This document shows positions 5,472 to 51,221 of a stretch of DNA of 64,000 bases, piece by piece. A program made the translations under genes and the position numbers. The notes under the pieces were generated by a model. It saw only the letters and a list, made by a program, of their open reading frames with translations. It had not been told where the DNA came from and did no database searches. This DNA comes from a virus (lineage: Duplodnaviria > Caudoviricetes): IMG/VR virus record IMGVR_UViG_3300046167_000709, positions 2,243-66,242 of that record; one strand, given 5' to 3'. Numbering within the stretch: position 1 is the stretch's first letter; each line of letters starts with the position of its first letter.

Positions 5472-5611
5472 TAGCACTTACCTTTTTTCTGTTGCTTTGA
5501 AGCCCAGATGTTAGCATATGCACTAGGATATACATCGAATTTTCTTCTCGCTGCAGCTTTACACTTAGCTGTTAACTTGACGTATAGCGGTGAACTTTCA
5601 TTATTTTTCAT
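5471..5611 (-). CDS. Small basic protein, 46 aa (not in ORF track)
   Basis: Manual translation MKNNESSPLYVKLTAKCKAAARRKFDVYPSAYANIWASKQQKKGKC; overlaps the end of the giant ORF. Confidence 0.6.
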   Translation of the reverse strand: MKNNESSPLYVKLTAKCKAAARRKFDVYPSAYANIWASKQQKKGKC

Positions 5612-8600
5612 CTTTATCTTTTTTTTGTAGTTCTAATATTTTTTTAACTCTATTGTTTTCGTTTTTAAGCTCTCTAATTTGCTTTTTAGTTAAGCCAAAG
5701 TCTAATAATGTTTTAACTTGATCAGGTTTGTTAGTGTCTTTCTTCATTTTATCAACCTCAAGTTGCAATTCTTGCTTAGGTGTTAAAGGTTCTTTTTTAT
5801 CAAAACCTCCGTAATACCCAAGACCTAATTCCCAAGTTCCCCATCCAAGACCTAAAGCTACTTTTTGCCAAAGTGAAGATCTTTCATTTACTAAACCTCT
5901 TAAGTTATTTATTTTCTTAGCAACTCTATCAAGTGGAATATTGGTAAAACCAGTTACAACTTGAGCGCCCGCCATATAAGCTGGGTTATCTAAGCTAAAG
6001 CCTTTCTCTTTTATATCCTTCATATTCCAGCTAAAACTTCTCAATCCACCTTTTATTTTACCTATTTTAGATCCAAGAGGCGGTGAAAAACTTAGTAAGT
6101 CATCTACTGCGTTTTCATATTTAGAACCTTTCTTACCATACTCTTCATAAAGAGTCATTAAAGTGTTTTTAATAGCTGCACTTGCAGCTCCAAATATACC
6201 TAAACCTTTTAACTGAGAATCAATCATTCCATTAGCTACTTTATAAGCTTTATCGTTTCTCTTCTTAGCTTTTGCCTCGTCAGTTTCTTCTTCATCATCT
6301 CCAAACCCTAAAGCAAATACTGCTTGTTGCAGCGAGTTAAATATTAAATTCTGAATAGCACCGTAGTAAACTATCTTAGATACATTGCTTCTCCAGTCAC
6401 CTCGACCATTTATAAGATCCTGCGCAGCGCGTTTTTGAATACGAGCATACTGCATTGGAGTATTAGCCCAAGCAAGTATAACACGCCCCGCTGCAGAGGC
6501 TTGTTGTTGGCTAATTTTACTAGGTGAACTAGACTGTTGGTTTTCTTCCGCTATAGCTTTAAAATCTTCAAAAGCTTGCGTCTCAGCATCAGCATCGCTT
6601 AAACCTTGTTTCTTTAAAGCTTCTAATCTATTTCTATAGAAAGTAGATCCACCAGATGCAATAGCAAAACTATCTGCAAATCTAGTCATAACAAAACCTT
6701 TACTAAGTAAGAAAGCAATAGCTGCTTTAGGTTTGTTCTTAGATTCTCTTACAGCATCAGCAATTTCAGATTCACTTACGTTAATCTTAAGACCGTTTCT
6801 ACGTTCCACTAAGTAATCAGAATTCATAAGCGTCATAAAATCACCCCAAAATTGTTTTTGGTTTGCAAACGCTCTTCCTGCCTTTATTATATTATTATCA
6901 CCTAAGTTTATGAAGTTTACCGCAGATATAGTTTGTAGTAGTGCAGATCTTGTATTTAAGAACATTACAGCACCAACAGAATTGTTTAACCAGTTAAGTA
7001 ATCCTTCTGTCACTCTGTTACCTCCGATTGGTCTATTGCTACCAGATTTCATTCTACGTATAGAATCTTCCATAGCTTCACGCCATCTAGTTCCGTACGC
7101 AGCTTCCATCTTGTTCATATTATCTTCTGAGAATATAATGTCGATGTTCTCTCTCCACTCTTGCTGATACTCAGCTCTATTAACTTTGTTAATACCACCA
7201 ATAATATCTGTAGTAATGTTTCCACCTAACCAGTCTTTATCAGGTTTTGGATATTCTTTACCTTTTTGTATTTTAATAAGCTCGTCAGTAAACACTCTAA
7301 GCTTAGCGTCTTTGTTTACAAAATCATTTAATTCTTTAATATCTCTTTTAGATAAACCAGGTATATCCATACCTTGCTTAGTCCAAGCAGCGACACGCAC
7401 TGCGTGAGAATAAGTGAATTTACCAATACCAGTTTGTTTGCTTAAGGTTTTAGGTAATGTTTTTAGTTTTGTTTTTAAAGCTACAAAATCATTTGCAGCA
7501 GATATCTTAGCTTGCGTAACCGCAGACTCAGCTCTATTGTAAGTATCAAGCAAGTTTGTTTTTAAGAAAGCCATTTGAGCATCTCCTTTCTTACCTTTGC
7601 CTATCATCTTATATAGTAAACCTGTAAAGTCTTCAGCGGATGGTGGAATAAGGAAATTGTACTTACCTTTGCTAGCACCAACTGTTTTAGCTCTAGCTGC
7701 AGAATACTTTTTATAAGTTTCAATACCAGACGAATCCTCGATCATATCATTTACAACAGTATCAAAGGTTTGTCTTTTACTAGCTTTTGCTAATTGAACT
7801 TTAGACTTAACATCTATTTGACTTAATACGTCTTTAACTGCTTTAACGTTTCCTGTGTGATCGTCTGCGAAATAAAAGTCATTATAACCTTCAGCTGCTT
7901 TACCCATAATCCACCCAGCTTTAGCCTGTGGAGTACCATCACCTAAACCAGTTATGTTAGCAAGTGGAATATCTAATCCCATGCTAGCTAAAAATTCTTT
8001 AATTGGTCCAGCTGCATCTGCAGGTCTTGCCGTTAAAACAAATACGTCTTTAGTTCCACGTTTTTCTGCTATAATTTTAGCTACATCTAATAGTGGTCCT
8101 TTACTTCCTTGCATTACTTTACTAAACTCAGAGAAATCCCATTGAGCTCCTTCAGCTTCCATATTACCTGCTTCTTTAGCAAATGTAGCAGCGTCTATAG
8201 CTCCAGTAGTTCCATCAGGCATTGTATATAACACATTGCTTTTAGTTCGAGCTAATGTATCATCAAAGTCAAATACTCTAATCTTTTTAACAGGTTGATC
8301 TAGTTTTCTAGCAAGCTCTAGAGACTTGTCAGTTTTTTCTAAAGCGTTTATAGCTGTTTGTACAGTTATAGGTCTGTCGTATTTTATAGCATCAGGAATT
8401 AAATCGCTATCACGTTTTGAAGCCATAGCTTTTCCTGGTGCTAATTCTGTATATACTTTAATATCTTGCTTAGCTTTCTCAGCTGTAGTTTCACCTATAA
8501 ACTGCTCGTATATTAATCTTTGTTGTTCCGCTTGAACATCTAGATTATTTCTAAACTTAGCATCAACTTCTACGTTGTATTTAGCAGCGTCTGAAACACC

Positions 8601-11600
8601 ATTTATAGATCTATTATTTGGGTTTAACGCGAAATATTCATTGTATTTTCTTATATCCGCGGGAGGTACTTCACTAAAATCACCAGTCTCAAAAGCTTCA
8701 TTTAGTTTTTCATGAAGATAGGGATGTTCTTCAGATTTAGCTTTCCACGTAGTACCGTCTTTAAAATAAGTAGCATCTACTATAGCTTGAGTTTCTTTAC
8801 CTGTAACTTCTTGATAATAATTATCATTAACCCATTTAATCCAGCCGTCTAAAACTTTTGGGTTATCGCTGGATATAGCTTGAAGTGTTCTATTAGCAAA
8901 GTTTCCAAATTGATAAACGTGCTCTTCCCAAGACTTAGAACCAGCTTCTACACCTTGTTCTAAGCCAAGAACCGCTGCCATTTTTCTACCAAAACTATAA
9001 TTAGCATTTTGATTATATATCATAGCTGCTATACCTCTGATGTTTTTAGGATCTAACTTATAAAGTTCAGCAAGTTTCTCTATAATAAGTCTAACACCCT
9101 TGTCGTGTAGTGATTTATTTTTAAGATTACCTTCTATGTTTTTTATAGTTTGGCTAGATATAGCTTGTTTTATAGCTTTTAAATCTGATTCTGATATAGC
9201 ATCTAAACCTTCTAAAGCGCTTATAGTATTGTTTATTACTTTTAAATCTCCTAACTCTCCAGATTCTAAAGCTTCTTTGGTTTCTTTTATATATCTTTTA
9301 GTCTTATTAGCGTCACTTATAAACAAAAATTTTCTACCTTTAGCTCCACTAGTTGGCTTGCTACCTATGTAGGAGTTTCCAGCACCCGCTAAGTTTGATG
9401 CAACTGCAAATAAGCTAGCGTTTTTTCCAAAAACTTTAGTTAAATCATCGACAAGGAAATTACTTAAATCAGTAACACCTTCAACTCCAGGTTTTATAGG
9501 TTTATAACCTGCATTAACAACGTTAGAATCTACGTTGTATTGAGATCCAGCGCTTCTCTTACTAAACTTAGCTTGCTGAGAAACCTGCAGCCTTTCTGCT
9601 ATTTTAGCTTTATCTAATTGAGGCTTGGCTTTAAAGGCTTCTGTGCTAGGTGTTGCTTCTGCTATAAATTTGTTAGCTATCGCTTTTGCTATAGCTCTTT
9701 TTCTATTGCTATTATTTTGAGGTGTACTTCCAAAGAAATTATTTATTACAGCTGCGACTTTAGGGTTTAATCTATTGTAAAGAACTGCACCAGCTTTTTG
9801 TTGAGTAGTTGTAAGATAAGGAATTCTACCCTGCATCATAAACTTTTCAATATCAGCTTGCTTTGTTAACCTTCTATTTGGTTCTGTAAAAAGTCTAGGT
9901 TGACCCTTCTTAACTCTACCATCGTCAATAGCAACTAAGTCTGTTATACTCAAACCTTTATAAAACGTAGGATTAGAATTTAAAAACTCTCTAAATTGTT
10001 TTGGATTTCCTATTAAGTCTTTAACAATAAAATCTACAAAATCTTTAGATGGTTTAAAAACTTGTTTTCTAAACTTTTCACTATTAATATCTACATTCTT
10101 TAGCTGTTCTGTTACAAAACCTCTAACTTTATCCTTAAACGGGATATCTAGTGGCTTTCCATCTATTTTAATATTATCAACAAGCTTGACATCTGTGTCT
10201 ACTTCTATAGCTGGACCTCTTGATGTGTCTTCTATAGATTCAAGTTCTTTTTGTCTTTCGTCTGAAATACTAGTTTCAACGCTTTTAGTTCCAATTTCTT
10301 GCTCATAAAACTTAGCTTGCTTTGGCTGTATGTTTCTATAGACAAAAGTAGATATTTGCTGAGGCACGTCTTTACCATCTATGTTCTTAACAGGCTTAAA
10401 TCTTCTAAGTATTCCAGGTATATAATCATTAACAAATCCTAGAGCTTTATCCCTAGATACTGTTCCTTTTCCTTGCTTATAACCTAAAGCTTCTATAGCC
10501 ATTAATTGAACTTGCTCAACTAAATTGTCTTCTTCTTTCTTGGTTAAACCTTCTTTTGATTTGGATTTTACAGCTAAATCTTGAGCGCTAGTAGATGCTA
10601 TAGCACCTGTATCTTTTTTACTTTCTTTAGCTACTATGCTTTCAATCTCTTTAGTGTTGTCAACCATTGCTTCGTTAAGAGCTTTCACGGCTTTACCACC
10701 TTTTTTCCTACCGTCAATTTTTACATCTCCACTAACCAACTCGCCTTTAGCTCCTTCTTTAGCTATTCTAACTTGATCTTCGGTTAGTTTACCGCCAGAT
10801 TGTATAGTGTCGTTAAAGTCTTTAATAAAATTAAAAGCATCTAAACCAGTGTCAAATGTTATACTTAGCTTTTGTTGGTTCGCTGGGTTTTTAAATAAGT
10901 TAGAGATTTTATTGCCTATCGACTTCCAAAAACTATCTTGTTTCTTGTTATATACAATGTCTCCATCGGTAAGAGATTCACTTAATAAAGGAATAACTTC
11001 TTCCCACGTGTTTTCTGCTGAATAATTTTCATCACTTAAGTATTCGTTGAACCTGTTCATGAAAGTAAATCCACCTGTTATATCAGGGTTATTAACTATT
11101 TCATTAATCAGTGCTTGGCCAAATTTAATTGCAGCGTCTGGATTTGTTTTGAACGTTTGAAGGAAGAAATGATGTAAAAGCTCGTGTTGATCCGTGGTAT
11201 ACTTGAAGTCTTCTGCTTGCGCTTGGTCGTTTATTAGTATTACTTTTTTACCATCTAAAACCAAAGCTTGACCGTAACCAGTAGACTCTAAAACGCTACC
11301 TCCTTGTTCTTTTATTTCTTTTACTCTTTCATCTATTTTAGCTTGGTCACTAAAAGTTTCTAGTGTACTTTCTATTTGATCAGATATATTTTTAGCACCC
11401 GCTCTTGACTTAGATTCTGCTATTTTAGTTTTATTGATTTCAACTATTTGCTCATCTACTTTTGCTATTTTTTCATTTATAGGTCCATGAAAAGATGAGT
11501 CTACGTTTTCTTTTTCTTTTAATAGCTCTGTTTTCTCCATTAACAAATCAACTTCCACTCCAGTAACATCACCTGGAGCTTTACTCATAGCTTTAGATAC

Positions 11601-14150
11601 ATTGAAAGCAAGTTGCTGCGCTTTTATTATTTGCTGTATTGTTTCAGGATTGCTACTAGATTTTTTCATTGTATCAAGATACATCATAGTAGAATTTATG
11701 TTGTTATGTATCTGATTGTATATTAAGGTTTTTTGATTATTAAATGTTTTAACAGCACCAATAGATCCCATACCTCCGCTTAACATTAAAGTTCCAGCAA
11801 TTAATTCTATTTGTGAATTTAAAAACTCAGAAGACTTAGGTAGAGCTAATCCAAAAGAAGCATCAGTAACTATATTCATAGCCGCGTTTATTTCTTCTTC
11901 ACCAAGTTCTTTTAATATATTAACTGTAAACTCTTTTCCAGCTGCTTTAAAACCTTCTTTAGTTGCTATGTTTTTTAATTTACCTGAAAATATATCTTTT
12001 ATTTTCTTACCTCCAACTCCTCTTAGAAACTGAGCATCTGGCATTATAGTCTGAACTAAACCTTCTGTCAAAGAAACAGCACTAGCATACGCAAGCCCAC
12101 GCCCTCCAAACAATCCTTTAGCTTCAGCATCTTTAACGTTGTCCATTAAAGTTGCTCTAAAAGTAGCGTCCGCCATTAATATACTGTCTTTTAATTTACT
12201 AGAAACAGGTGATAAAACTTTAGACTTAGATCCAAGCCCAGTAATTGTTTTACCTATTCCTTTTTGAAAAGATGTAACATTACCTTTTCTAACCTCGTTC
12301 ATTAAATGTAAAGTAAAAGGAAGCATTTGACCGCCAAGTTTTAGGTAATTTCTAGCACCAGCATCTGTGTTAAAACCACCTTCTTCAGTTGTGATTTTAA
12401 ATTTTTCGTCTTCAGACTTAGGTACTAAACTATAATCCGTAAAGTTGTACACTGTATCTCTCCAAGCGTCATAAACCGAATAATCTTCTTCGTCTGTAAA
12501 AAGATCTCCAAAGCCAGCCATTAAAGCGGCAGGAAAACCAATAGAAGCTTTTTTAGCTAAACCATATAAGCCACCAACAATTTCTCCACCTACAATATCC
12601 ATTGTGCCATTCCAAAAACCTTCTCCTGAAAAGCTTTCTCTGTAAGCTTCAACTTCATCAGATAATTTAAAATTATTTCCCAAGGTTTCTCTAGAAAAAC
12701 TCATGTTTAAATCTCCTTCAATACTGCTTTTAGTCGCGGCTATATTAGATAACTCTTTCTTATAAAAACTAAGCTTTTCGTTTCTTATTTTAGAAGTCTC
12801 TGTGTAAGTTGAAACTAAGGAATTATAGTTTTGTACTTGCTCAGGAGTGTTTAATCCAGACTCTTTGAGAGCTGTCATTTGAGAATTTATAGTGTCTAAA
12901 TCAGAATCTAATTGAATAATATCCTCATCGTATTTTAGTTTAACGTTTTCAAATTGAGAACTTAAAAATTTAGACTTTCTTTTTATTACAGGTATTTTAA
13001 ATTTATTTATTAAATCTTCTTTTTCCTGTAAATTAAAAGTTCCTTTAGCTAGTTTTTGTAAAGATCTTTTGTCTAAAGAATTTACTATATTTAACTCTAT
13101 CTCATCGTTTATTTCTATAGTTTCACTAGGTTCACTGAAGTCTACACCAAAGCCTTTTAAAGCAGAGTTTAAATAGTTTGTTACGTCTCCAAAACCACCT
13201 CCTGTGCTAGCGTTGTTTCCAGTGTCTTTTCTAAGCTCTTCAAGAGCCTTTGACTGAGTGTCTGTTAAACCATCTAACTCTTTAATTAACTCTATTTCTT
13301 TAGCATTGTTTTCGTCAAAATTAGCTAGCTCTTTAGCTATAAATTGATCTCTAGACGCTTGATCTTCAAAGTTTTTATTAGCAAATCTAGTTGACTTAGA
13401 TTCTAGGTCAACTCTTTGTTGCTCTATTTCTTTAAGTTTGTTTTTTTGAGCAGTGTAATATGTAAGTTCAGGGCTTTGCTCTATATCTTCTTCTATAACG
13501 TCACCAACATATTCCGACATAGGCGGAGCGTAGGTTTGAGTTTCCCATAAAGCACCCTCTTCTTGATTCACACCTAAGTCTATGGGTTGATTTCTAGCTT
13601 CTTGAAGCTCTTTTTTAGTTATATCGTCTCTATGACCTAACTCTAATTGAACTGCTGCTAAGTTTATTTGAGCATCTTGAGATCCATTGTTTTCACTTAG
13701 ATTTGACCAATTATCGGTTTCTTGCTTTTTAGTATAGTACTTTATTTTGTTATCGTCACCAACCTGCCATTTGTAGTCGTAGTTGTCAGCAGAATAGGTT
13801 TCATTTTCCTTCACTACACTGTTCAACTTAGCTGTTTGTTCTGTGTATTGTTTCTGTGATTTTCTAGCTTGATCCATCTCTTGATCAGTCATTCCAGGAC
13901 CAAAAAATCTAGGTTCTTGAGATGCTAATTTTCCACTTCCAGAACTTGAACTCTCGGATGCTACCGGGGTTGTTGCTGCAGTCGCATCCTCTTCCACAAC
14001 AACTTCTGTCTTTACTTCTTCAACAGGTGTTTCAACAACCTCTGCCTCAGCAGTTTTTGTTCTACCTTTAAATTCTTGAGCTTTAGCAAATATCTCTTCT
14101 TGAGATAACCCAGTGTCTTGTAAAGAAGTTACGTATTCTAGTAATGTCAT
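5601..14150 (-). CDS. Giant polyvalent internal virion / ejection protein (zincin-like HELLH, HAD phosphatase domain, possible sigma-2-like segment)
   Basis: 2849 aa following tail/internal virion genes; HELLH at ~11172-11186; HAD motifs VFDFDDTL, VLTAR, K, FADD at ~7790-8290. Confidence 0.75.
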   Translation of the reverse strand: MTLLEYVTSLQDTGLSQEEIFAKAQEFKGRTKTAEAEVVETPVEEVKTEVVVEEDATAATTPVASESSSSGSGKLASQEPRFFGPGMTDQEMDQARKSQKQYTEQTAKLNSVVKENETYSADNYDYKWQVGDDNKIKYYTKKQETDNWSNLSENNGSQDAQINLAAVQLELGHRDDITKKELQEARNQPIDLGVNQEEGALWETQTYAPPMSEYVGDVIEEDIEQSPELTYYTAQKNKLKEIEQQRVDLESKSTRFANKNFEDQASRDQFIAKELANFDENNAKEIELIKELDGLTDTQSKALEELRKDTGNNASTGGGFGDVTNYLNSALKGFGVDFSEPSETIEINDEIELNIVNSLDKRSLQKLAKGTFNLQEKEDLINKFKIPVIKRKSKFLSSQFENVKLKYDEDIIQLDSDLDTINSQMTALKESGLNTPEQVQNYNSLVSTYTETSKIRNEKLSFYKKELSNIAATKSSIEGDLNMSFSRETLGNNFKLSDEVEAYRESFSGEGFWNGTMDIVGGEIVGGLYGLAKKASIGFPAALMAGFGDLFTDEEDYSVYDAWRDTVYNFTDYSLVPKSEDEKFKITTEEGGFNTDAGARNYLKLGGQMLPFTLHLMNEVRKGNVTSFQKGIGKTITGLGSKSKVLSPVSSKLKDSILMADATFRATLMDNVKDAEAKGLFGGRGLAYASAVSLTEGLVQTIMPDAQFLRGVGGKKIKDIFSGKLKNIATKEGFKAAGKEFTVNILKELGEEEINAAMNIVTDASFGLALPKSSEFLNSQIELIAGTLMLSGGMGSIGAVKTFNNQKTLIYNQIHNNINSTMMYLDTMKKSSSNPETIQQIIKAQQLAFNVSKAMSKAPGDVTGVEVDLLMEKTELLKEKENVDSSFHGPINEKIAKVDEQIVEINKTKIAESKSRAGAKNISDQIESTLETFSDQAKIDERVKEIKEQGGSVLESTGYGQALVLDGKKVILINDQAQAEDFKYTTDQHELLHHFFLQTFKTNPDAAIKFGQALINEIVNNPDITGGFTFMNRFNEYLSDENYSAENTWEEVIPLLSESLTDGDIVYNKKQDSFWKSIGNKISNLFKNPANQQKLSITFDTGLDAFNFIKDFNDTIQSGGKLTEDQVRIAKEGAKGELVSGDVKIDGRKKGGKAVKALNEAMVDNTKEIESIVAKESKKDTGAIASTSAQDLAVKSKSKEGLTKKEEDNLVEQVQLMAIEALGYKQGKGTVSRDKALGFVNDYIPGILRRFKPVKNIDGKDVPQQISTFVYRNIQPKQAKFYEQEIGTKSVETSISDERQKELESIEDTSRGPAIEVDTDVKLVDNIKIDGKPLDIPFKDKVRGFVTEQLKNVDINSEKFRKQVFKPSKDFVDFIVKDLIGNPKQFREFLNSNPTFYKGLSITDLVAIDDGRVKKGQPRLFTEPNRRLTKQADIEKFMMQGRIPYLTTTQQKAGAVLYNRLNPKVAAVINNFFGSTPQNNSNRKRAIAKAIANKFIAEATPSTEAFKAKPQLDKAKIAERLQVSQQAKFSKRSAGSQYNVDSNVVNAGYKPIKPGVEGVTDLSNFLVDDLTKVFGKNASLFAVASNLAGAGNSYIGSKPTSGAKGRKFLFISDANKTKRYIKETKEALESGELGDLKVINNTISALEGLDAISESDLKAIKQAISSQTIKNIEGNLKNKSLHDKGVRLIIEKLAELYKLDPKNIRGIAAMIYNQNANYSFGRKMAAVLGLEQGVEAGSKSWEEHVYQFGNFANRTLQAISSDNPKVLDGWIKWVNDNYYQEVTGKETQAIVDATYFKDGTTWKAKSEEHPYLHEKLNEAFETGDFSEVPPADIRKYNEYFALNPNNRSINGVSDAAKYNVEVDAKFRNNLDVQAEQQRLIYEQFIGETTAEKAKQDIKVYTELAPGKAMASKRDSDLIPDAIKYDRPITVQTAINALEKTDKSLELARKLDQPVKKIRVFDFDDTLARTKSNVLYTMPDGTTGAIDAATFAKEAGNMEAEGAQWDFSEFSKVMQGSKGPLLDVAKIIAEKRGTKDVFVLTARPADAAGPIKEFLASMGLDIPLANITGLGDGTPQAKAGWIMGKAAEGYNDFYFADDHTGNVKAVKDVLSQIDVKSKVQLAKASKRQTFDTVVNDMIEDSSGIETYKKYSAARAKTVGASKGKYNFLIPPSAEDFTGLLYKMIGKGKKGDAQMAFLKTNLLDTYNRAESAVTQAKISAANDFVALKTKLKTLPKTLSKQTGIGKFTYSHAVRVAAWTKQGMDIPGLSKRDIKELNDFVNKDAKLRVFTDELIKIQKGKEYPKPDKDWLGGNITTDIIGGINKVNRAEYQQEWRENIDIIFSEDNMNKMEAAYGTRWREAMEDSIRRMKSGSNRPIGGNRVTEGLLNWLNNSVGAVMFLNTRSALLQTISAVNFINLGDNNIIKAGRAFANQKQFWGDFMTLMNSDYLVERRNGLKINVSESEIADAVRESKNKPKAAIAFLLSKGFVMTRFADSFAIASGGSTFYRNRLEALKKQGLSDADAETQAFEDFKAIAEENQQSSSPSKISQQQASAAGRVILAWANTPMQYARIQKRAAQDLINGRGDWRSNVSKIVYYGAIQNLIFNSLQQAVFALGFGDDEEETDEAKAKKRNDKAYKVANGMIDSQLKGLGIFGAASAAIKNTLMTLYEEYGKKGSKYENAVDDLLSFSPPLGSKIGKIKGGLRSFSWNMKDIKEKGFSLDNPAYMAGAQVVTGFTNIPLDRVAKKINNLRGLVNERSSLWQKVALGLGWGTWELGLGYYGGFDKKEPLTPKQELQLEVDKMKKDTNKPDQVKTLLDFGLTKKQIRELKNENNRVKKILELQKKDKDEK

Positions 14151-17534: not shown

Positions 17535-20500
17535 TTAAGGTTCATTAACTATTATAGCTGTAGCTTGAGTTACGCCTTCTGTTGGTAAAGTAGGGAAATT
17601 TTGTGAAATACTATTTATTGTTATTTCATAAGTGTAACTTCCATCAAATAAGTCTACAGTTTCAGATTCGTTATTTTCAGAGACTGTATCTGTTCCAGTT
17701 ACTAAAACAGCTACTTCTGTACCAACATTATTAAATATCCTACAAGTATAACCGATTTCTAAATCCGGGTTATCAGGTCCACTAGCGGAACCTCTAAGTT
17801 TAAACGGAGCTCCTTCAACTGAATCCGCATTAATTATCGTAAAACTACCAGGGCTTACTACTTTGGGGGGAGTTCCACAGACTCCTACACCATTGCTCAT
17901 ACAAGCAGAGTTTTTTCCGTCAGCGTATTGTATATTAAGCGCGTATATATATCTTACTTTAAAAGGACACTCTATAAAAAGCCCGCCACCATCTGTTAAA
18001 GTAACTACGATATCATATTCACCTTCAGGTGTTTCGGTTTGAGTTGGACGGACGTGACCCCAGTCAGTTAGAAATGGAAATTCTTCGTTTATAGTATTCC
18101 CTATAGTAAAAAAAGTAGGATGTGATTGACACTCTAAGCTCCAAACTAAATCCAATTGATCTACATCCGGTGAATAGCTACCGTTTCTACCTGAAAAAGT
18201 AAAAATAGTATCTTGTGGGCTTGTTTTGATGCCAAATTCAATCGTAGCTTGGGGACAAACATCTATTATTGGCGCTACGTTGTTTAAGACTACAGGTAAG
18301 TGTGCTATAAAAGGTGGTGCATTTGGCGGATCAGGGTCTTGGTTGGGATGGTTGAAATGTATTTCAAAAACCAAGTTGTTTACACCAGTAGTAACAGCTA
18401 GATTACTATAAGGAGCTGCTACTTGCATTTTAAAACTTCCGTTATTATTAGATATTGGTTGCTCAAAGCTGTCTATGTATGGATCGCCTAACAAGTTGTT
18501 TGTATTAGACGGGTTTCCTTCCTCATATACACTGACTAGTTCCGCCGTCGCAAGGTTTAGTGGCTGTATTGAGCTTTCGTTAAACAAAACAGCTCTAAAG
18601 CTTTGAACAAAAACTCCATCAGTATTATCACCTTGATGTGTTGTCTCAAATAATTCATCATTCCAGTTGCGTACTTCTGTGTAAATTTGTCCACCAGGAT
18701 TATCAGATATAGCTTTATTTAACTCACTAACCAAACCGCTTGTTGATGTTTCCCAGTATATATCTAGCAAAGATTTTTGAGCTTCTACTTCATATATATT
18801 TAAAGCTCCCCCAGCCGTAGGATATCCGCTTGCTGGAACCTGAACGCCTGCCTGTTTAGTTGTGCTAATTCTAGCAATTAAAGGGTCTGAATCTTGATTA
18901 TAAAAGAAATCAGGTTGTCCTGGTTTTGAAAAACCAATAAAAAGACCCCCTGGACTAATATATGAAGTTGAGTCTTGAATGTTAAGGTCTGGTGGGTCTG
19001 ATAATATACAACGAAAAGCTGGCCCATTCGACACTGCACCAGAGTCAAGAGTGTAATCATTGGGGTCTTGGCTGGATTGTATACTAGTAATAAACGTTTT
19101 ATTAGTCGGGTATATAGGGCTATTAACTACGTCTCCAACTTTAAGGGTTAAATTAAGTCTAATTCTGTCTTGGATTTCTAGCGGTGTTGGTGCTGGAGTT
19201 CCACCTCCTGGGCTAATTAAGGTAAGTTGATTAGCAGGGGTTGATGGACCTGGTTGCCAAAGAATGTTGCTTTGACCTATTCTTCTTTTAACAGGGTCTG
19301 ATTCTGGTATCTCAAATAAGTCATCTATAGTTCCAATAGCTGAAGCTATATCTCCAACTTTATCCGGAAAGAATTGAACATTATCAAAAAAAGCAGAGCC
19401 ATATGTAAAGTTTATTTCCGTACCAGCGCTACATTCAACTGCGCCACTGACTGTGATTTGCCCGGCATTTGTGTCTATGGCTTCTATAACCAAACCAGAA
19501 GGAATCGATATAGAGTCTAAACCCATACCAACTTCCATGCCCGTAAGATCTATTAATGCAAAACTCAAAATGTTAGAACCTCCAAGTGGAGAAGTATCAT
19601 TAGTGTCTCTGGTAAATGCTATGTCTGTTTTTTTATCACAAGCTACTCTAGGCCAAAGCTTAACGCTACTTCTAAACTGCTTTTGAGTAGGTCCAAGTTC
19701 TTGTAAATCTCTAGGTATTTTATTTATATTGTCACCAAATAAAGATATGTGAGATGTTTCAAAAGCTTCTTTTCCTGCGTCTAAAGGATAGCCTTCCATT
19801 ATTGGGGCTACATACGCATTATAATAATCTTGTTCTGTTTGCTTTACAACTACTTTGAAAGAATACCAACCAAGTGGGTTATAGTCGTTAGAGTTTTGAT
19901 CTCCATTGTAAAGACCTGGACTACCTAAGTAGGTGGATGGTATTAAACTATTAAATACGACTTTAAGTGACTCTCCATCAAATGCTGATGGATTATTTTG
20001 TTGGTCTGAAAGATCTCTAAAAGGATTGTATATAGTAGAAGCTAAGTAAGAAGGTATTGAGTTGAACTCAGACTCTGAAAGTATAACAGTAGACTGTCTA
20101 CCAAACCTATCTGCTAATACTATACCTACTTCGTAGTTTCTGTTTTGTTTTAAAGAAGCATTTGGATATTCTATTTTACTAGTTCCAAATGAATTTAAAA
20201 TACCTGGTCCAAAACCAAACTTTTCATTCGCAGCAAGGTTGTAGTTCAGAAAATTAGGCGGCATATGTTTATCTTGATAATTAGCATATACAACTCTATT
20301 ACTTATTATTTCTTGAGACTGAGCCCTTACCGGTACTTTATCATAAACCCTAGTGTTTTCACTTTCTGGAATTGTTTTAAAAGGAGACTTAGAACCATAT
20401 TCGTAAATAAAATATGTATCATTTCCAGAGAAGTTAGTAGAATTTACAGGTATAGTATCTACTACTTTTATAGCTATTTCATTAGATTCTTTATACAGTA

Positions 20501-37053: not shown

Positions 37054-37313
37054 AAAACAACAACTACATCTTGCGCTTTAATAACGTGATATGTTTTTTT
37101 ATCTATTTCTATTTTATGCCCAGCGTGTCGATCAAAAAAGATCTTATCACCTTTTTTTATCCCTTCAACTTGCTCACCTACCGAAAACACAAATGCTTCT
37201 GTGTAGCGTATATCTTCACGTTGGTTTTCTGCAAGAAGTAAACCACCTTTCGTTTTGGTGGTTCCTTCTTTTATTTTTTCTATTATTAAGTTTCTACCTA
37301 TCGCTTTCATCAA
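37050..37313 (-). CDS. groES: Co-chaperonin GroES
   Basis: TKTKGGLLL mobile loop, SVGEQVEGIKKGDKIFF; directly downstream of groEL. Confidence 0.92.
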   Translation of the reverse strand: MMKAIGRNLIIEKIKEGTTKTKGGLLLAENQREDIRYTEAFVFSVGEQVEGIKKGDKIFFDRHAGHKIEIDKKTYHVIKAQDVVVVL

Positions 37314-38847
37314 TTCTTAAATTATTGATTACACAATCGGTTGATAATATCGTTGTCGCTACTGAAGCTGCGTTCTGAAGAGCGCTCTTGGTAACTAGTA
37401 AAGGGTCAATAATACCTGAGTTAATCATATTTACCATTTTTCCTGTAACCACATTTAAACCTCTTCCTTTAGCTTTTGGCAGTTCTACGTCTGTTATGCC
37501 GGCGTTCTCTAGTATTGTCTTAAATGGTGCTCTAATTGCTTCTAATAGCAGCTTCTCACCATCTGATTTTGGTACTATACTTTTCGCAGCATTTAACAGT
37601 GCTATACCACCTCCAGGAACGATACCTTCTTTAATAGCAGCTTTTGTAGCGCAGATAGCATCTTCGACTCTATCTGTTTTTTCTTTTAATTCAATATCAG
37701 AATTAGCACCTACTTTTACAATCGCTATTTTAGCAGCAAGCATTGCTAATCTTTTTTCAAGTTTAATTACTTTGTGAGGTGGGTTATCTTTTGACAACTC
37801 ATTTTTAATCTCATCTATAATATCTAATATTTCCTGTGAAGATTCTCCAAACTGAAGAATAGTCTCTGTGTGTGTTGTAACACTTTTTAAGCAACTACCT
37901 AAATGCTCTACTTGGATTAAATCCATATCATCGCCTAGGTCTTCATTTATTATAGTAGCTCCAGTTAATAAAGCTAAATCATCTAAAACTTCTTTCTTGC
38001 TAATACCATAAGTAGGTGCGTTAATTACATTGACTTTGATATTGCCTTTGTTTTTATTCATAGCTAAAGCAGATAAAACACCTTGTTCTAAATCGCCGAT
38101 AATCAGCAAAGGTTTATTGTTTTTTATTACATGCTCCAGCACTGATTGAATTTGCCTAATTGTATCAATAGGTGATTCAACTAGTAATACTAATGCGTTT
38201 TCAAGTTCAGCTGACTTGTTTTGCTTGTTTGTTATAAAATGAGAGTTCGTAAGACCTTTGTCATATTGAACACCATCTATAACTTCTACTTCTGTTTTAC
38301 CCTCTGCTGAGGTTTCCATCATTACAATCCCTGTATTATCTACAGCTCTAAAAGCGTCAGCTATAATGCTACCTAGCTTTGGATCATTATTTGTAGATAT
38401 AGTTGCGATCTGATCGATCATACTACCTTCTACAGGTACTGATGCAGATTCTAAGTAAGTAATTACTTTTTCTACAGCTTTGTTAATACCTTCTTTTAAC
38501 TCTCTTGAGTTTGTTTTATCTGAAACCTTATAAGCTTCAGTTAATATAGCGTGAGCTAAGACTGTGGCTGTGGTTGTACCATCGCCTGCTTCTCTCACTG
38601 TTTTTCTTGCTGCTTCTTTCAAAAGTGTCGCACCCATATTTTCTACTGGGTCTCGCAAGATTATTGAATCTGCTACTGTAACACCATCTTTTGTAATAAT
38701 TGGTTTTCCAGTATGATCCTCAAGCATCACACATTTGCCGCTAGCTCCGAGTGTGGAGCTAACAGCTTTTGTGAGTTTTTCTATTCCTTTAAATACATTA
38801 ACTCTAGCGTCTTCGCCGAAGTTAAGGTTTTTGACAATTGCGTCCAT
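37294..38847 (-). CDS. groEL: Chaperonin GroEL (no GGM tail)
   Basis: ITKDGVTVA, AGDGTTTATVLA, EGIVPGGG, GIIDP. Confidence 0.97.
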   Translation of the reverse strand: MDAIVKNLNFGEDARVNVFKGIEKLTKAVSSTLGASGKCVMLEDHTGKPIITKDGVTVADSIILRDPVENMGATLLKEAARKTVREAGDGTTTATVLAHAILTEAYKVSDKTNSRELKEGINKAVEKVITYLESASVPVEGSMIDQIATISTNNDPKLGSIIADAFRAVDNTGIVMMETSAEGKTEVEVIDGVQYDKGLTNSHFITNKQNKSAELENALVLLVESPIDTIRQIQSVLEHVIKNNKPLLIIGDLEQGVLSALAMNKNKGNIKVNVINAPTYGISKKEVLDDLALLTGATIINEDLGDDMDLIQVEHLGSCLKSVTTHTETILQFGESSQEILDIIDEIKNELSKDNPPHKVIKLEKRLAMLAAKIAIVKVGANSDIELKEKTDRVEDAICATKAAIKEGIVPGGGIALLNAAKSIVPKSDGEKLLLEAIRAPFKTILENAGITDVELPKAKGRGLNVVTGKMVNMINSGIIDPLLVTKSALQNAASVATTILSTDCVINNLRIDESDR

Positions 38848-46832: not shown

Positions 46833-47009
46833 TACTTTTTAAAAAAAATGTTACATATTTGGGGGTATGGTGTTATATTTCTCCTCCGGGAAGCGCGTTC
46901 GACAGGAAAAACGCAACCTTTTAGCCACCCCCGCCGACTTTTTACAACCATTTTTCATATATATCGGGATTTTTTACTGTATATTTCTCTAGCATTTATG
47001 CTTTTTTAT

Positions 47010-49309: not shown

Positions 49310-50440
49310 ATGAAAAAAATTAAATTTATCAACTCGACAACTATCAGGTTTGATGGCCAAGATTACAAAGGTTATCCTGTCGGCGAGTTACCAAAACGCT
49401 TTGCGTTTATCTACAACGAAGACAAAGACCAAGAAGGTATCACTGAGTGGTTCAACTACAAAGGTCTAACTTTTGTCGAGTATAACCCTTCAATCTGGTC
49501 TTATGTCTAGTCCTAAAAATATGAAGGAAGCGTGTCAAGCTATGATAGACTCGAGAAGAAATCGTGCAAGAGGGCATAGACTCAAGCACCAACACGAGGT
49601 GTGTAGCGGACTGACTGATAAAGAGTGGAACGCCGTGGTTACAAGGCAGAAAAGCTCTTTCGCTAAAGGCAAGTCGTTCGCTTACACTGCTCGATGGAAT
49701 GATTACAAAGTAAACTATAAAAAAATAAAACTATGAAACTAATAGAAGTAAACAAAAACGGAACATCTACGTTCTTATTAAATGACGGGCGTAAAATAAA
49801 GTCATATCAATCAGGTTATGTAAGAATTGAAACCTCTTATCTTGATCGACTATATCAAATAAACAAAAGAATTGAAGTTAGAGACGAATACTGGACAGGT
49901 TATTGGCATGGTAAAGGCTATACTGATAGAGTTGTAAGCAACTACAAGCGTATACTAATACCAAACGAGATCGACAGGTTGCAATATATTATTAACTGGG
50001 TAAAGAAAAATGTAAAATGACAGAAAAAATAAAAGACTTTGTAGAACACGAGTTAAAAATGTTAGACAAAGGTATCGTGGCAACTCCACAAGATAGAGAG
50101 TATCTAGAATCTTTTGCTAAAGCAAACCAAGGATCTATGGATATACTACTAATGCAAATGAGTATTAACTTTGGCTATAAAATAGCTTTAGAAAACATGA
50201 AAGACAGATTTTATGAGTAAAATGAACGAAATAGATGAGATAGCTCAGTATCAAGCTGATGTTATACTAGAAACCCTGAAAGAACAGGTGGAATGGTCCA
50301 TAGCGGACTATGATGTAAACGGTGATGACTATTATAATCTAAGAGATTACACTGTCTACCAAACTGTAATTAAATTACTAGAACAAGTGGATCTTGTAGA
50401 TGTTGATAATTACAAACAAAATACGATTATCTCTGGATAA
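49310..50440 (+). other. Operon of five small hypothetical early ORFs (49310-49510, ~49503-49736, 49733-50020, 50017-50220, 50213-50440)
   Basis: Overlapping start/stop coupling, downstream of repeat 5. Confidence 0.65.
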
Positions 50441-50452
50441 TATATATGTAAC
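50411..50452 (+). promoter_or_regulatory. Early promoter-like repeat, copy 6
   Basis: TACAAACAAAATACGA-TTATCTCT-GGATAATATATATGTAAC. Confidence 0.75.
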
Positions 50453-50470
50453 AAATAAAAATAATAAACT

Positions 50471-50659
50471 ATGTATTGTAAATGTGGAAATGAAGTACAC
50501 CCTGTGAGGTTGGAATTAGGTTATAAAACGTGTGTTGAGCACTCGACAACTCAAACATATTCGTATGTACCTATTATCGAGCACAAAACAGGTAATACAA
50601 TACAAATTGTCAGCCAAGAAGTAAGTGCATCTGTGCACAGAGCTTGGCGGCGTAAATAG
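50471..50659 (+). CDS. Small Zn-finger protein (DksA/TraR-like C4 variant)
   Basis: MYCKCGNEVHPVRLELGYKTCVEHS resembles the CxxCG..I...RL......C..C pattern. Confidence 0.55.
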   Translation: MYCKCGNEVHPVRLELGYKTCVEHSTTQTYSYVPIIEHKTGNTIQIVSQEVSASVHRAWRRK

Positions 50660-50677
50660 CTAGATAAATCTAGCGGC

Positions 50678-50763
50678 AACTAGGTATGGATGCAACAGGA
50701 GTTATTAAATTAACCAGAGTTCATTACTGCGACGGCATGAGAGTTCGATTCTCTCACTAGTTA
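50678..50763 (+). ncRNA. Degenerate tRNA-like RNA (acceptor stem, T-arm and variable-arm-like hairpin; no canonical D/anticodon arm)
   Basis: AACTAG...CTAGTT-A closing stem; GAGAG-TTCGATT-CTCTC T-arm preceded by TGC-GACG-GCA. Confidence 0.5.
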
Positions 50764-50769
50764 CAAATC

Positions 50770-50848
50770 GTACAGTATCACGGGTTGCAGAGTAATTAAC
50801 TGCATGCACGGTGGAAGTCCGATCGCATAAATGCGGAGATAACTGTAC
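50770..50848 (+). ncRNA. Unassigned ~79-nt multi-branch structured RNA
   Basis: GTACAGT/ACTGTAC closing stem enclosing three hairpins (TGCAG/CTGCA, CGG-TGGAAGT-CCG, CGCA-TAAA-TGCG). Confidence 0.5.
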
Positions 50849-50853
50849 TTTTT

Positions 50854-50934
50854 GGGGGTGATTTGGTTTTGACGTGATAGAAAGCCTATATGGAACTATT
50901 ACGGAAGACAGTTCGAATCTGTCCACCTCCACTA
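50854..50934 (+). ncRNA. Mini-tmRNA: tmRNA tRNA-like domain without the mRNA-like domain
   Basis: 5' GGGGGTGATTTGGTTTTGAC (ssrA-type start); acceptor GGGGGTG/CACCTCC with G3-U and discriminator A; 8-bp CGTGATAG/CTATTACG helix; T-arm GACAG-TTCGAAT-CTGTC. Confidence 0.72.
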
Positions 50935-50947
50935 AAACAAATAAATT

Positions 50948-51202
50948 ATGGAAATTAAAGAAAAAGATTTAATAACTCTAGGTTTCGAGCGAACTGACGT
51001 GTCTGAGAAAGAATCTGGTGCTAATTCGTTTTATTATTATACATTAGATTTTGGTGAAAATAAAGTTGTAAGTCTTATTAGCTCAAGCAATGACGAAGTT
51101 GTGGACGATAATTGGGATTTATCAATATTTGAAGACGATAGTTTAGCAATAAAAAAGCTAGAAGATTTAATTAGTTTTATAACTATAATGAAAAAAAATT
51201 AA
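50948..51202 (+). CDS. Hypothetical acidic early protein
   Basis: 84-aa ORF with AT-rich leader. Confidence 0.65.
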   Translation: MEIKEKDLITLGFERTDVSEKESGANSFYYYTLDFGENKVVSLISSSNDEVVDDNWDLSIFEDDSLAIKKLEDLISFITIMKKN

Positions 51203-51221
51203 TTCAAAAGAGAAATAAATT

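Follow-up and report, generated by a model that had tools for sequence, protein, structure and literature searches.

A transfer-messenger RNA reduced to an alanine-type tRNA-like domain in a phage genome and in many other viral contigs

Introduction

Bacteria rely mainly on trans-translation for ribosome rescue and quality control. The RNA of this pathway, transfer-messenger RNA (tmRNA), is also known in forms that are reduced to the tRNA-like domain (TLD) and have no coding sequence (CDS), e.g. a plastid form of ~65 bp and a jakobid mitochondrial form, which are found together with SmpB and are believed to assist where mRNAs are incomplete (PMC11915505). Among phages, Hudson 2014 lists "Mycobacterium phage DS6A (TLD only)" and, citing Mao 2009, describes the DS6A RNA as barely more than a TLD; a DS6A-like molecule, chargeable or not, strongly inhibits tmRNA in Escherichia coli, perhaps by titrating SmpB (PMC4131195). 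Nawrocki 2025 repeats both the DS6A case and the inhibition (PMC11915505). The original DS6A paper (Mao et al. 2009, RNA Biol 6:355; tmRNA Website entry Phage__Mycobacterium.9) is known to us through these citing papers. Here we describe a 78-nt TLD-only tmRNA, termed mini-tmRNA, that is encoded in a 64-kb stretch of viral DNA (the window) covering bases 2243-66242 of the 66,242-bp IMG/VR virus record IMGVR_UViG_3300046167_000709.

An earlier note on this DNA had named protist mitochondria as the precedent for TLD-only forms. This precedent stands but is not the only one, as phage DS6A, with its inhibition experiment, is another (PMC4131195, PMC11915505). The literature that we searched for phage TLD-only tmRNAs yielded only DS6A, and supplementary tables (PMC11915505, PMC9004378) may list more. 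The kind is thus already known from one phage; its breadth across viruses, now at least 144 viral contigs, is unreported in the searched literature, and the same appears to hold for its restriction to viruses, the invariance of U70 and the inner module described below.

A complete tRNA-like domain without a tag

The mini-tmRNA consists of an acceptor stem with a G3-U70 wobble, a D-loop analogue that forms no stem, a helix 2 closed by a short loop, and a canonical T arm (Table 1). RNAfold returned this structure both as the minimum free energy (MFE) and as the centroid fold (-26.8 kcal/mol versus a shuffle mean of -17.7, z -2.86), and none of 200 shuffled sequences folded as stably. Sequence and MFE fold agree with the length of 78 nt, the stems, the D-loop analogue and the T arm that the earlier note had described. 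The note was also right that CCA is not encoded: the trailer reads CTA, so that 3' trimming and CCA addition by the host would be needed.

The Rfam tmRNA model RF00023 matches positions 50854-50934 with 65.7 bits (E 2.3e-23; gathering score 47 bits) over model positions 1-374, with 304 internal model positions deleted and 11 nt in their place. This is the sole Rfam match at gathering score within the 64-kb window, also when the search was repeated with lax filters, and the only one in 50300-51100 at E up to 10. ARAGORN called no tRNA and no tmRNA anywhere in the window. Of the model checks that the earlier note had proposed, the Rfam one therefore bore out the assignment from end to end, whereas ARAGORN made no call.

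What is missing is equally clear. The D stem and the anticodon arm are absent according to both the fold and ARAGORN; pseudoknots PK1-PK4 are absent, with merely 15 nt closing helix 2; and so is the mRNA-like domain, with its resume codon and its tag open reading frame (ORF) ending in a stop. No ORF leading from a GCN codon to a stop occurs anywhere in the RNA. The element is like tRNA-Ala in G3-U70, A73, the 7-bp acceptor stem and a T arm with a GTTCGA loop; unlike tRNA-Ala, it has neither a D stem nor an anticodon stem-loop, and Rfam assigns it to tmRNA. An identity as tRNA-Ala, considered as an alternative, was ruled out by these two absences and by the lack of an ARAGORN call. We thus confirm, in agreement with the earlier note, that the element is a complete tmRNA TLD with alanine identity and without the tag domain, beyond chance resemblance. 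The identity set of alanyl-tRNA synthetase (AlaRS) is G3-U70 plus A73, and the determinants for alanylation and for binding of SmpB and EF-Tu appear, as far as the sequence tells, to be present.

Distribution in viruses and cells

In order to define the family we used two sequence patterns, both of which fix G1-G4, C69, C71-C72 and A73. The strict pattern consists of the two TLD ends and allows any 22-52 bases from GAC to the T loop, and the relaxed pattern is less stringent at positions 5-8 and in the D-loop analogue; position 70 could be any base in the prokaryote, size-class and relaxed scans. The strict pattern matched 54 IMG/VR contigs, which together with the window give 38 unique sequences, and the relaxed pattern matched at least 120. 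The pooled loci number at least 146 (the window, at least 144 IMG/VR contigs and one contig of a metagenome-assembled genome, MAG) and yield at least 111 unique sequences of 63-92 nt, with a mode of 78-79 nt. Among the matches listed, the flanking GC content ranges from 0.27 to 0.69, and ARAGORN called a tRNA in none of the 111 unique sequences. In all 19 sampled loci RF00023 scored above its cut-off exactly at the coordinates of the mini form (54.2-79.5 bits).

With identical end motifs, the distance from GAC to the T loop falls into discrete size classes: 54 IMG/VR contigs have 22-52 nt, 4 have 53-83 nt, 32 have 259-289 nt and 60 have 290-320 nt. This distribution sets the mini form apart as a class of its own, and its frequency in IMG/VR is about that of either full-length size bin. 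It is nearly absent from cells: a strict-pattern scan of one genome per species, covering 185,579 prokaryotic species, returned a single contig, a 20.8-kb MAG contig labelled as archaeon whose mini form resembles the viral ones. Such a distribution points to a common infection-specific function, testable with an RNA of 78 nt.

Eight contigs of 34-67 kb (L003, L012, L019, L022, L023, L030, L042 and L053) have neighbouring proteins in common with the window. They carry the same mini form, with few changes and a preserved structure, rather than a full-length tmRNA or tRNA-Ala, which excludes the one-off deletion that the earlier note had considered.

Conservation of structure and alanine identity

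An RNAalifold consensus of 32 diverse sequences contains 19 pairs, distributed over the acceptor stem (P1), helix 2 and the T stem, and 11 of them show compensatory changes. The fraction of paired cells is 98.2% compared to 69.9% in shuffles, and the covariation score is 0.724 compared to 0.156; none of 500 shuffles reached either value, and the score was 0.08-0.16 when partners were slid by 1-3 columns. Both sides changed in 6 of the 7 helix-2 pairs and 4 of the 5 T-stem pairs. Six of the seven acceptor pairs and one T-stem pair were fixed by the search pattern and are therefore uninformative on covariation. The covariation that the earlier note had asked of a real RNA is thus seen in helix 2, the T stem and acceptor pairs 5 and 6. 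Pair 5 is GC in 52 sequences, CG in 23, AT in 21 and TA in 12, and pair 6 is TA in 79, AT in 14, CG in 13 and GC in 4 (among the matches listed).

The conservation of G3-U, likewise anticipated, was also seen. With the position left free, U70 is T in 54 of 54 strict-pattern matches and is kept in 110 of 111 unique sequences (among the matches listed), the sole exception (L199) being an outlier in which pair 5 is broken too. G3-U70 also occurs in DS6A and in Streptomyces phage LuckySocke, which were found without the patterns, with Rfam and blastn, respectively. As U70 is nearly invariant while acceptor pairs 5 and 6 covary, the sequences suggest that charging matters.

No tag ORF is conserved in the family. 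An ORF running from GCN to a stop ahead of the T arm is lacking in 35 of 43 unique sequences, and in the other 8 its place and frame are inconsistent, mostly within helix 2. The loop of helix 2 is not featureless, as 70 of 85 unique sequences have a small hairpin there, mostly of 2-4 bp, often with a GNRA-like or palindromic loop and most commonly flanked by AAAG on the 5' side and by A or AA on the 3' side. This inner module reads AAAG-CC-TATAT-GG-AA in the window, and a few minimal members have a loop of only 3-5 nt and an overall length of 63-68 nt. Of the 43 unique sequences, 10 encode CCA and 8 end in CTA. One of the four intermediate-size forms, of 109 nt (L071 889-997, + strand), contains a possible 11-aa ORF that starts with Ala codons and has its stop within the loop; this may be a very short tag or have arisen by chance.

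Relation to described tmRNAs

We located the DS6A element at JN698994 28478-28560 (L167 1501-1583). It scores 43.2 bits with RF00023, i.e. below the gathering score, and standard pipelines therefore miss it. We also built a covariance model (R1) from the window and 31 IMG/VR sequences, leaving DS6A out. R1 gave 89.7 bits for the window element, 64.7 bits for LuckySocke (OR725497.1) and 56.6 bits for DS6A (E 3.6e-10), as against 24-37 bits for 12 full-length viral tmRNA loci; these scores place the window RNA as a member of the DS6A kind. The two have in common a phage-borne RNA of ~80 nt with G3-U70, a stemless D-loop analogue, helix 2, a T arm, an ACTA 3' end and an A-rich inner loop with a small capping hairpin (AAAA-CCGC-AC-GCGG in DS6A). 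They differ in host phylum (Actinomycetota for DS6A, probably Flavobacteriia for the window), in GC content, in RF00023 score (the window element is above the cut-off) and in the D-loop analogue, which is why our search patterns missed DS6A.

Two cultured Streptomyces phages that appear to carry the mini form make a tractable system. The mini-tmRNA of LuckySocke, confirmed by R1, lies in a tRNA cluster (L259 1491-1571, OR725497.1 ~17977-18057) and has the acceptor strand GGGUCUG with G3-U70; cmscan on this stretch at E up to 0.01 gave tRNA matches only, and the mini form was seen by reading the sequence and with R1. Beside it, at L259 1357-1483, is an Rfam tRNA alignment with 62 extra nt in the anticodon region. 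GiJojo is an apparent carrier, known from a blastn match alone (82.8% over 57 nt, PP725410.1 17035-17092, annotated as part of a hypothetical protein).

CDS-less organellar tmRNAs (jakobid and oomycete mitochondria, Mallomonadaceae plastids) are likewise TLD only, have no tag ORF and are believed to function with SmpB even so (PMC11915505, PMC4131195). Unlike the window RNA, however, they are their organelle's only tmRNA and are vertically inherited, with SmpB encoded in the nucleus. The virus brings its RNA into a cell in which a full tmRNA is presumably already encoded, so that competition rather than replacement is to be expected.

Full-length phage tmRNAs (the mycobacteriophage Bxz1 group, Bacillus phage G, marine myophages and phi38:1) are ssrA homologues among small genes and tRNA genes, as here, and have the same TLD ends as the window element; in contrast to it, they measure 300-360 nt and contain pseudoknots and a tag ORF. 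One such case is Cellulophaga phage phi38:1, whose terminase is 36.6% identical to that of the window phage. Its 362-nt tmRNA (KC821614.1 26803-27164, - strand; L062 1503-1862; 87.6 bits) has a 3' end A-CTA and, according to ARAGORN, the atypical 22-aa tag AQIEANMEAVNAILNLEVAVGV. It is unannotated, and the annotated hypothetical protein gp041 overlaps it on the opposite strand. When RF00023 was run on five whole relatives, phi38:1 had this full-length gene and the other four had no tmRNA-like gene. Phages of this host group can thus carry a full tmRNA, a mini form, or neither.

Proposed function

We favour a reading that we hold to be probable, though only just: the mini-tmRNA, charged with alanine and dependent on SmpB, would compete with host tmRNA and thereby uncouple rescue from tagging. 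The RNA would be transcribed from the + strand with the block of small genes around it, probably from the repeat motif at 50406, and excised like a tRNA, with RNase P cutting at G1, 3' trimming past A73 and CCA added by the host enzyme. Host AlaRS would charge it with alanine via G3-U70 and A73, and host SmpB and EF-Tu would bind it. Where a ribosome has stalled on a broken mRNA, the RNA could then enter the empty A site and accept the nascent chain without offering a resume codon or a tag. Overall, it would compete with host tmRNA for SmpB and stalled ribosomes, and rescue during infection would no longer lead to ssrA tagging, proteolysis and the mRNA decay linked with them.

Several lines of evidence lead us to this reading. 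The preserved parts of the TLD are, to judge from the letters, exactly those seen by AlaRS, SmpB/EF-Tu and the ribosomal A site, and the lost parts would be all those that resumption of translation and tagging of the product require. In vitro, a TLD-only tmRNA serves as an acceptor in peptidyl transfer (Shimizu and Ueda 2006, via PMC3895274). A DS6A-like molecule inhibits tmRNA in E. coli, as described above. Deletion of ssrA restores the growth of lambda where phage translation stalls, so that tagging can restrict a phage (PMC6207430). The near absence of the mini form from cellular genomes suggests that it is useful only to a virus, which fits interference better than housekeeping rescue. 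Domain searches of the window phage genome found no SmpB, RF-1/ArfB, Pth, tyrosine integrase (PF00589) or CCA-adding enzyme (PF01743); without SmpB, RF-1/ArfB, Pth or a CCA-adding enzyme of its own, the phage would depend on the host.

Some points weigh against such a competitor. A discrete transcript, alanylation, SmpB binding and an effect on tagging are all things that we infer. The invariance of U70 was measured on sequences in which G1-G4, C69, C71-C72 and A73 were fixed by the pattern. RNA-library support consists of one contig from one run (X16), and such libraries can contain DNA. A ribosome that has passed its peptide to the RNA might either be released, which would help the phage, or be trapped, which would harm it. 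Finally, the inhibition in E. coli did not need chargeability, as cited in PMC4131195, which fits a pure sponge for SmpB while leaving the invariance of U70 unexplained.

Titration of SmpB, tag-free rescue and a decoy role were the options that the earlier note had offered for an RNA made early in infection, and all three, like the timing, are conjectural. If the RNA were purely a sponge, it would sequester SmpB (perhaps also AlaRS and EF-Tu) off the ribosome and shut trans-translation down, and charging would be irrelevant. This would suit a phage that has no SmpB of its own to compensate. We nevertheless regard it as unlikely, as a sponge needs no U70, yet this base is kept in nearly all sequences while adjacent acceptor pairs covary freely, and as the full geometry of the acceptor and T arm is retained. 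Somewhat less unlikely is rescue without a tag for the benefit of the phage, in which the alanyl-TLD and SmpB would free ribosomes on fragments left by host shut-off or defence RNases, and host ArfB or Pth would then release the peptide; such a route has been put forward for jakobid mitochondria and some plastids, whose tmRNAs lack a CDS. This course would coincide with the one favoured above from transcription to acceptance of the nascent chain, and the gain would be a supply of ribosomes, not the loss of tagging. Conserved alanine identity is expected under it, a TLD-only RNA does take up peptide in vitro (PMC3895274), and the CDS-less organellar tmRNAs that co-occur with SmpB are thought useful on incomplete mRNAs (PMC11915505). 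However, a similar molecule inhibited E. coli tmRNA and did not replace it (PMC4131195, PMC11915505), the phage encodes no release factor-like or Pth protein, and a generally useful RNA should have cellular copies, whereas one of 185,579 species genomes matched.

The RNA might instead be a decoy that soaks up binders of tmRNA or tRNA shapes and so blocks a defence or its trigger, e.g. the SmpB-like domains of CoCoNuT systems, tmRNA-cleaving toxins or RNase R. The SmpB-like OB folds of CoCoNuT types II and III-A are predicted to bind tmRNA-like RNA (PMC10542128), one anti-CRISPR of phages makes use of RNase R-binding fragments of t(m)RNA (PMC11662646), and the HigB toxin is reported to cleave tmRNA (PMC3912914); the restriction to viruses and a second tRNA mimic adjoining the mini-tmRNA would also fit. 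We consider a decoy quite improbable because no defence or anti-defence gene is linked to the RNA across clades and a decoy of shape needs no invariant alanine identity. Most improbable of all is that the locus has no RNA function of its own, being a decayed tmRNA or tRNA gene, the core of an ssrA attP site, an assembly artefact, or a processing signal for RNase P or Z. Many islands do integrate into ssrA (PMC11915505), and among 5 further carrier genomes that were sampled 2 have a tyrosine integrase gene, but both halves of the TLD are present and covary, whereas an attP core holds only the 3' part. Moreover, the window genome has no integrase; in the two carriers with one, it lies ~4.8 kb (if circular) and 10.6 kb from the RNA; and prophage copies would be expected in bacterial genomes, where a single species matched. 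An artefact is contradicted by 14 DNA runs that contain at least 56% of the region's words, and a processing signal would need no U70.

The competitor of host tmRNA may also be part of something larger. Tentatively, and with more doubt than confidence, we suggest that widespread, virus-restricted, alanine-chargeable tRNA mimics are a general phage counter to trans-translation across many phyla, aimed at the tagging and decay of phage products when host shut-off or RNA-cutting defences stall translation. The phage lineage of the window would then carry a cassette of anticodon-less tRNA mimics made up of the mini-tmRNA, the second tRNA-like RNA at 50678-50766 and the 85-nt insert between them, which would retarget host factors for tRNA handling and ribosome rescue.

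Neighbourhood of the RNA

The mini-tmRNA sits in a 288-nt gap between two small ORFs, and the features around it are listed in Table 1. PHROGs searches on 10 small neighbouring ORFs gave nothing useful.

Table 1 Features of the mini-tmRNA and its surroundings, in window coordinates.
Feature	Position	Strand	Description
TLD-only tmRNA (mini-tmRNA)	50854..50931	+	78 nt up to discriminator A73; sequence, Rfam, fold, R1, covariation
Acceptor stem	50854-50860 / 50924-50930	+	7 bp, GGGGGTG / CACCTCC, G3-U70; G1 at 50854
D-loop analogue	50861-50872	+	12 nt, no stem, last bases GA ahead of C20
Helix 2	50873-50880 / 50896-50903	+	8 bp, CGTGATAG / CTATTACG
Loop closing helix 2	50881-50895	+	15 nt
Linker	50904-50906	+	GAA, between helix 2 and T arm
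T arm	50907-50923	+	GACAG-TTCGAAT-CTGTC, canonical
Discriminator	50931	+	A73
3' trailer	50932..50934	+	CTA; CCA absent from gene
Promoter-like motif, nearest upstream copy	50406..50471	+	ATTACAAAC.AAATACGA-N7-TTGGATAATA..AATGTAAC
Small ORF, 62 aa	50471..50659	+	upstream; no family match
Second unclassified tRNA-like RNA	50678..50766	+	just upstream of mini-tmRNA
Structured spacer	50769..50848	+	closing stem GTACAGTATC / GATAACTGTAC, then TTTTT
Small ORF, 84 aa	50948..51202	+	begins 14 nt past RNA trailer; no family match

In the second tRNA-like RNA, six base pairs (AACTAG/CTAGTT) form a stem like that of an acceptor. A stretch resembling a D-loop contains GG, the anticodon arm is replaced by a long variable hairpin, and a small hairpin, whose GACG loop is conserved, and the T arm GAGAG-TTCGATT-CTCTC are also present. 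It has no alanine identity (C3-G70), and its 3' end is A-CAA in the window and A-CAA or CTA across loci. No Rfam match at E up to 10 and no ARAGORN call were obtained for it. We found it in 24 IMG/VR contigs (L260-L277 and others; 20 unique sequences), with a match to the mini-tmRNA model as well in 14 of the 24 loci, and at L003 4320-4404, L019 1398-1485, L030 2624-2730 and L042 4250-4351. Compensatory changes in 5 of 6 T-stem pairs (columns 68-73 / 81-86; 14 sequences) were observed. The RNA is reminiscent, as we see it, of the stable tRNA-like RNAs in the T4 tRNA cluster. An 85-nt block (50769-50853), most of which is the structured spacer (-23.5 kcal/mol, z -1.82), separates the two tRNA-like RNAs. 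It is present or absent in related phages and is conserved, with an insertion, in L019 and L053; it may be a small mobile or optional RNA module.

A promoter-like motif of 45-66 nt occurs in seven to eight + strand copies between 47005 and 53126 in front of small ORFs (copies at 47005, 47514, 47718, 48312, 49247, 50406, 51452 and 53061); a regular expression for it matched 7 times on the + strand and not at all on the - strand in the 64 kb. We take the motif to be unlike the usual Bacteroidota consensus. The copy at 50406 is a candidate promoter for a putative unit comprising the 62-aa ORF, the RNA cluster, the 84-aa ORF and an 81-aa ORF, and because it precedes this unit early expression of the mini-tmRNA is plausible. 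A strict regular expression did not find the motif upstream in most relatives, and the motif GTAAATAGCTAG is not over-represented (11 matches versus 11.9 expected).

Six RNA-labelled runs contain 26-38% of the region's words, and contigs from four of them (X15-X18) were aligned to the region; such contigs cannot show RNA ends or strand. They cover the upstream small ORFs, and several stop near 50657-50664. Coverage over 50762-51205 is zero in X17 and X18 and next to none in X15. A 603-nt contig from X16 (depth 48.8) joins 50678-50768 directly to 50854-50936, the 85-nt element being absent, and has the variant A50901G, by which U-G replaces a U-A pair in helix 2. This contig is from a variant phage that was present in the RNA library; its transcription is unproven by it.

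Among the wider family, a tRNA gene lies within 500 nt of the mini form in 8 of 43 unique cases, the closest at 1 nt (L018, tRNA-Lys) and 6 nt (L012, tRNA-Met), which agrees with the tRNA-like excision proposed above. Clustering of 1677 ORFs within 4 kb of the element at 56 loci gave no cluster that spans all clades, and Pfam assigned unrelated functions (NlpC/P60, RusA, DNA ligase) in searches on 10 neighbour-cluster representatives. At one locus a type II hammerhead ribozyme match (L005 974-1038, - strand; RF02276, 44.1 bits versus 37) lies ~1.2 kb from the mini-tmRNA.

Phage genome and annotation

The virus record is 100% complete according to CheckV, and the window element is the only tmRNA-like match in it. 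Structural genes lie on the - strand up to 46493, and a block of small + strand ORFs begins at ~46.8 kb. PHROGs identified a large terminase, a portal, tail fibres, a GroEL-like chaperonin (37294-38847, - strand; PHROG 5725, E 2e-135) and a ribonucleotide reductase. The terminase matches 87 phage records at 30-64% identity, all from Flavobacterium, Cellulophaga, Tenacibaculum or Maribacter phages plus one uncultured record. Together with a GC content of ~0.35 and the origin of the 14 DNA runs mentioned above, which are seawater or viral metagenomes, this indicates that the host is probably a marine member of the Flavobacteriia. No match was returned when the 1 kb surrounding the element was compared by blastn with 50,697 phage records. 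An N4-like phage, at first guessed from a 2849-aa ORF (5601-14150, - strand), was dropped, as PHROGs gave no virion RNA polymerase match and the terminase relatives are of the flavobacterial type; residues 1952-2125 of this ORF have a weak polynucleotide-kinase-like match only.

The mini form falls into an annotation gap, with the GenBank records leaving those of DS6A and LuckySocke unannotated (as does RefSeq for DS6A). ARAGORN misses mini-tmRNAs, and at 3 of 36 loci it extends them to spurious long or permuted tmRNAs (L005 2273-2616, L002 7371-7673 and L029 9391-10042) whose "tags" run through protein genes. By our own reading, one of these false tags resembles a peptidase/endolysin motif.

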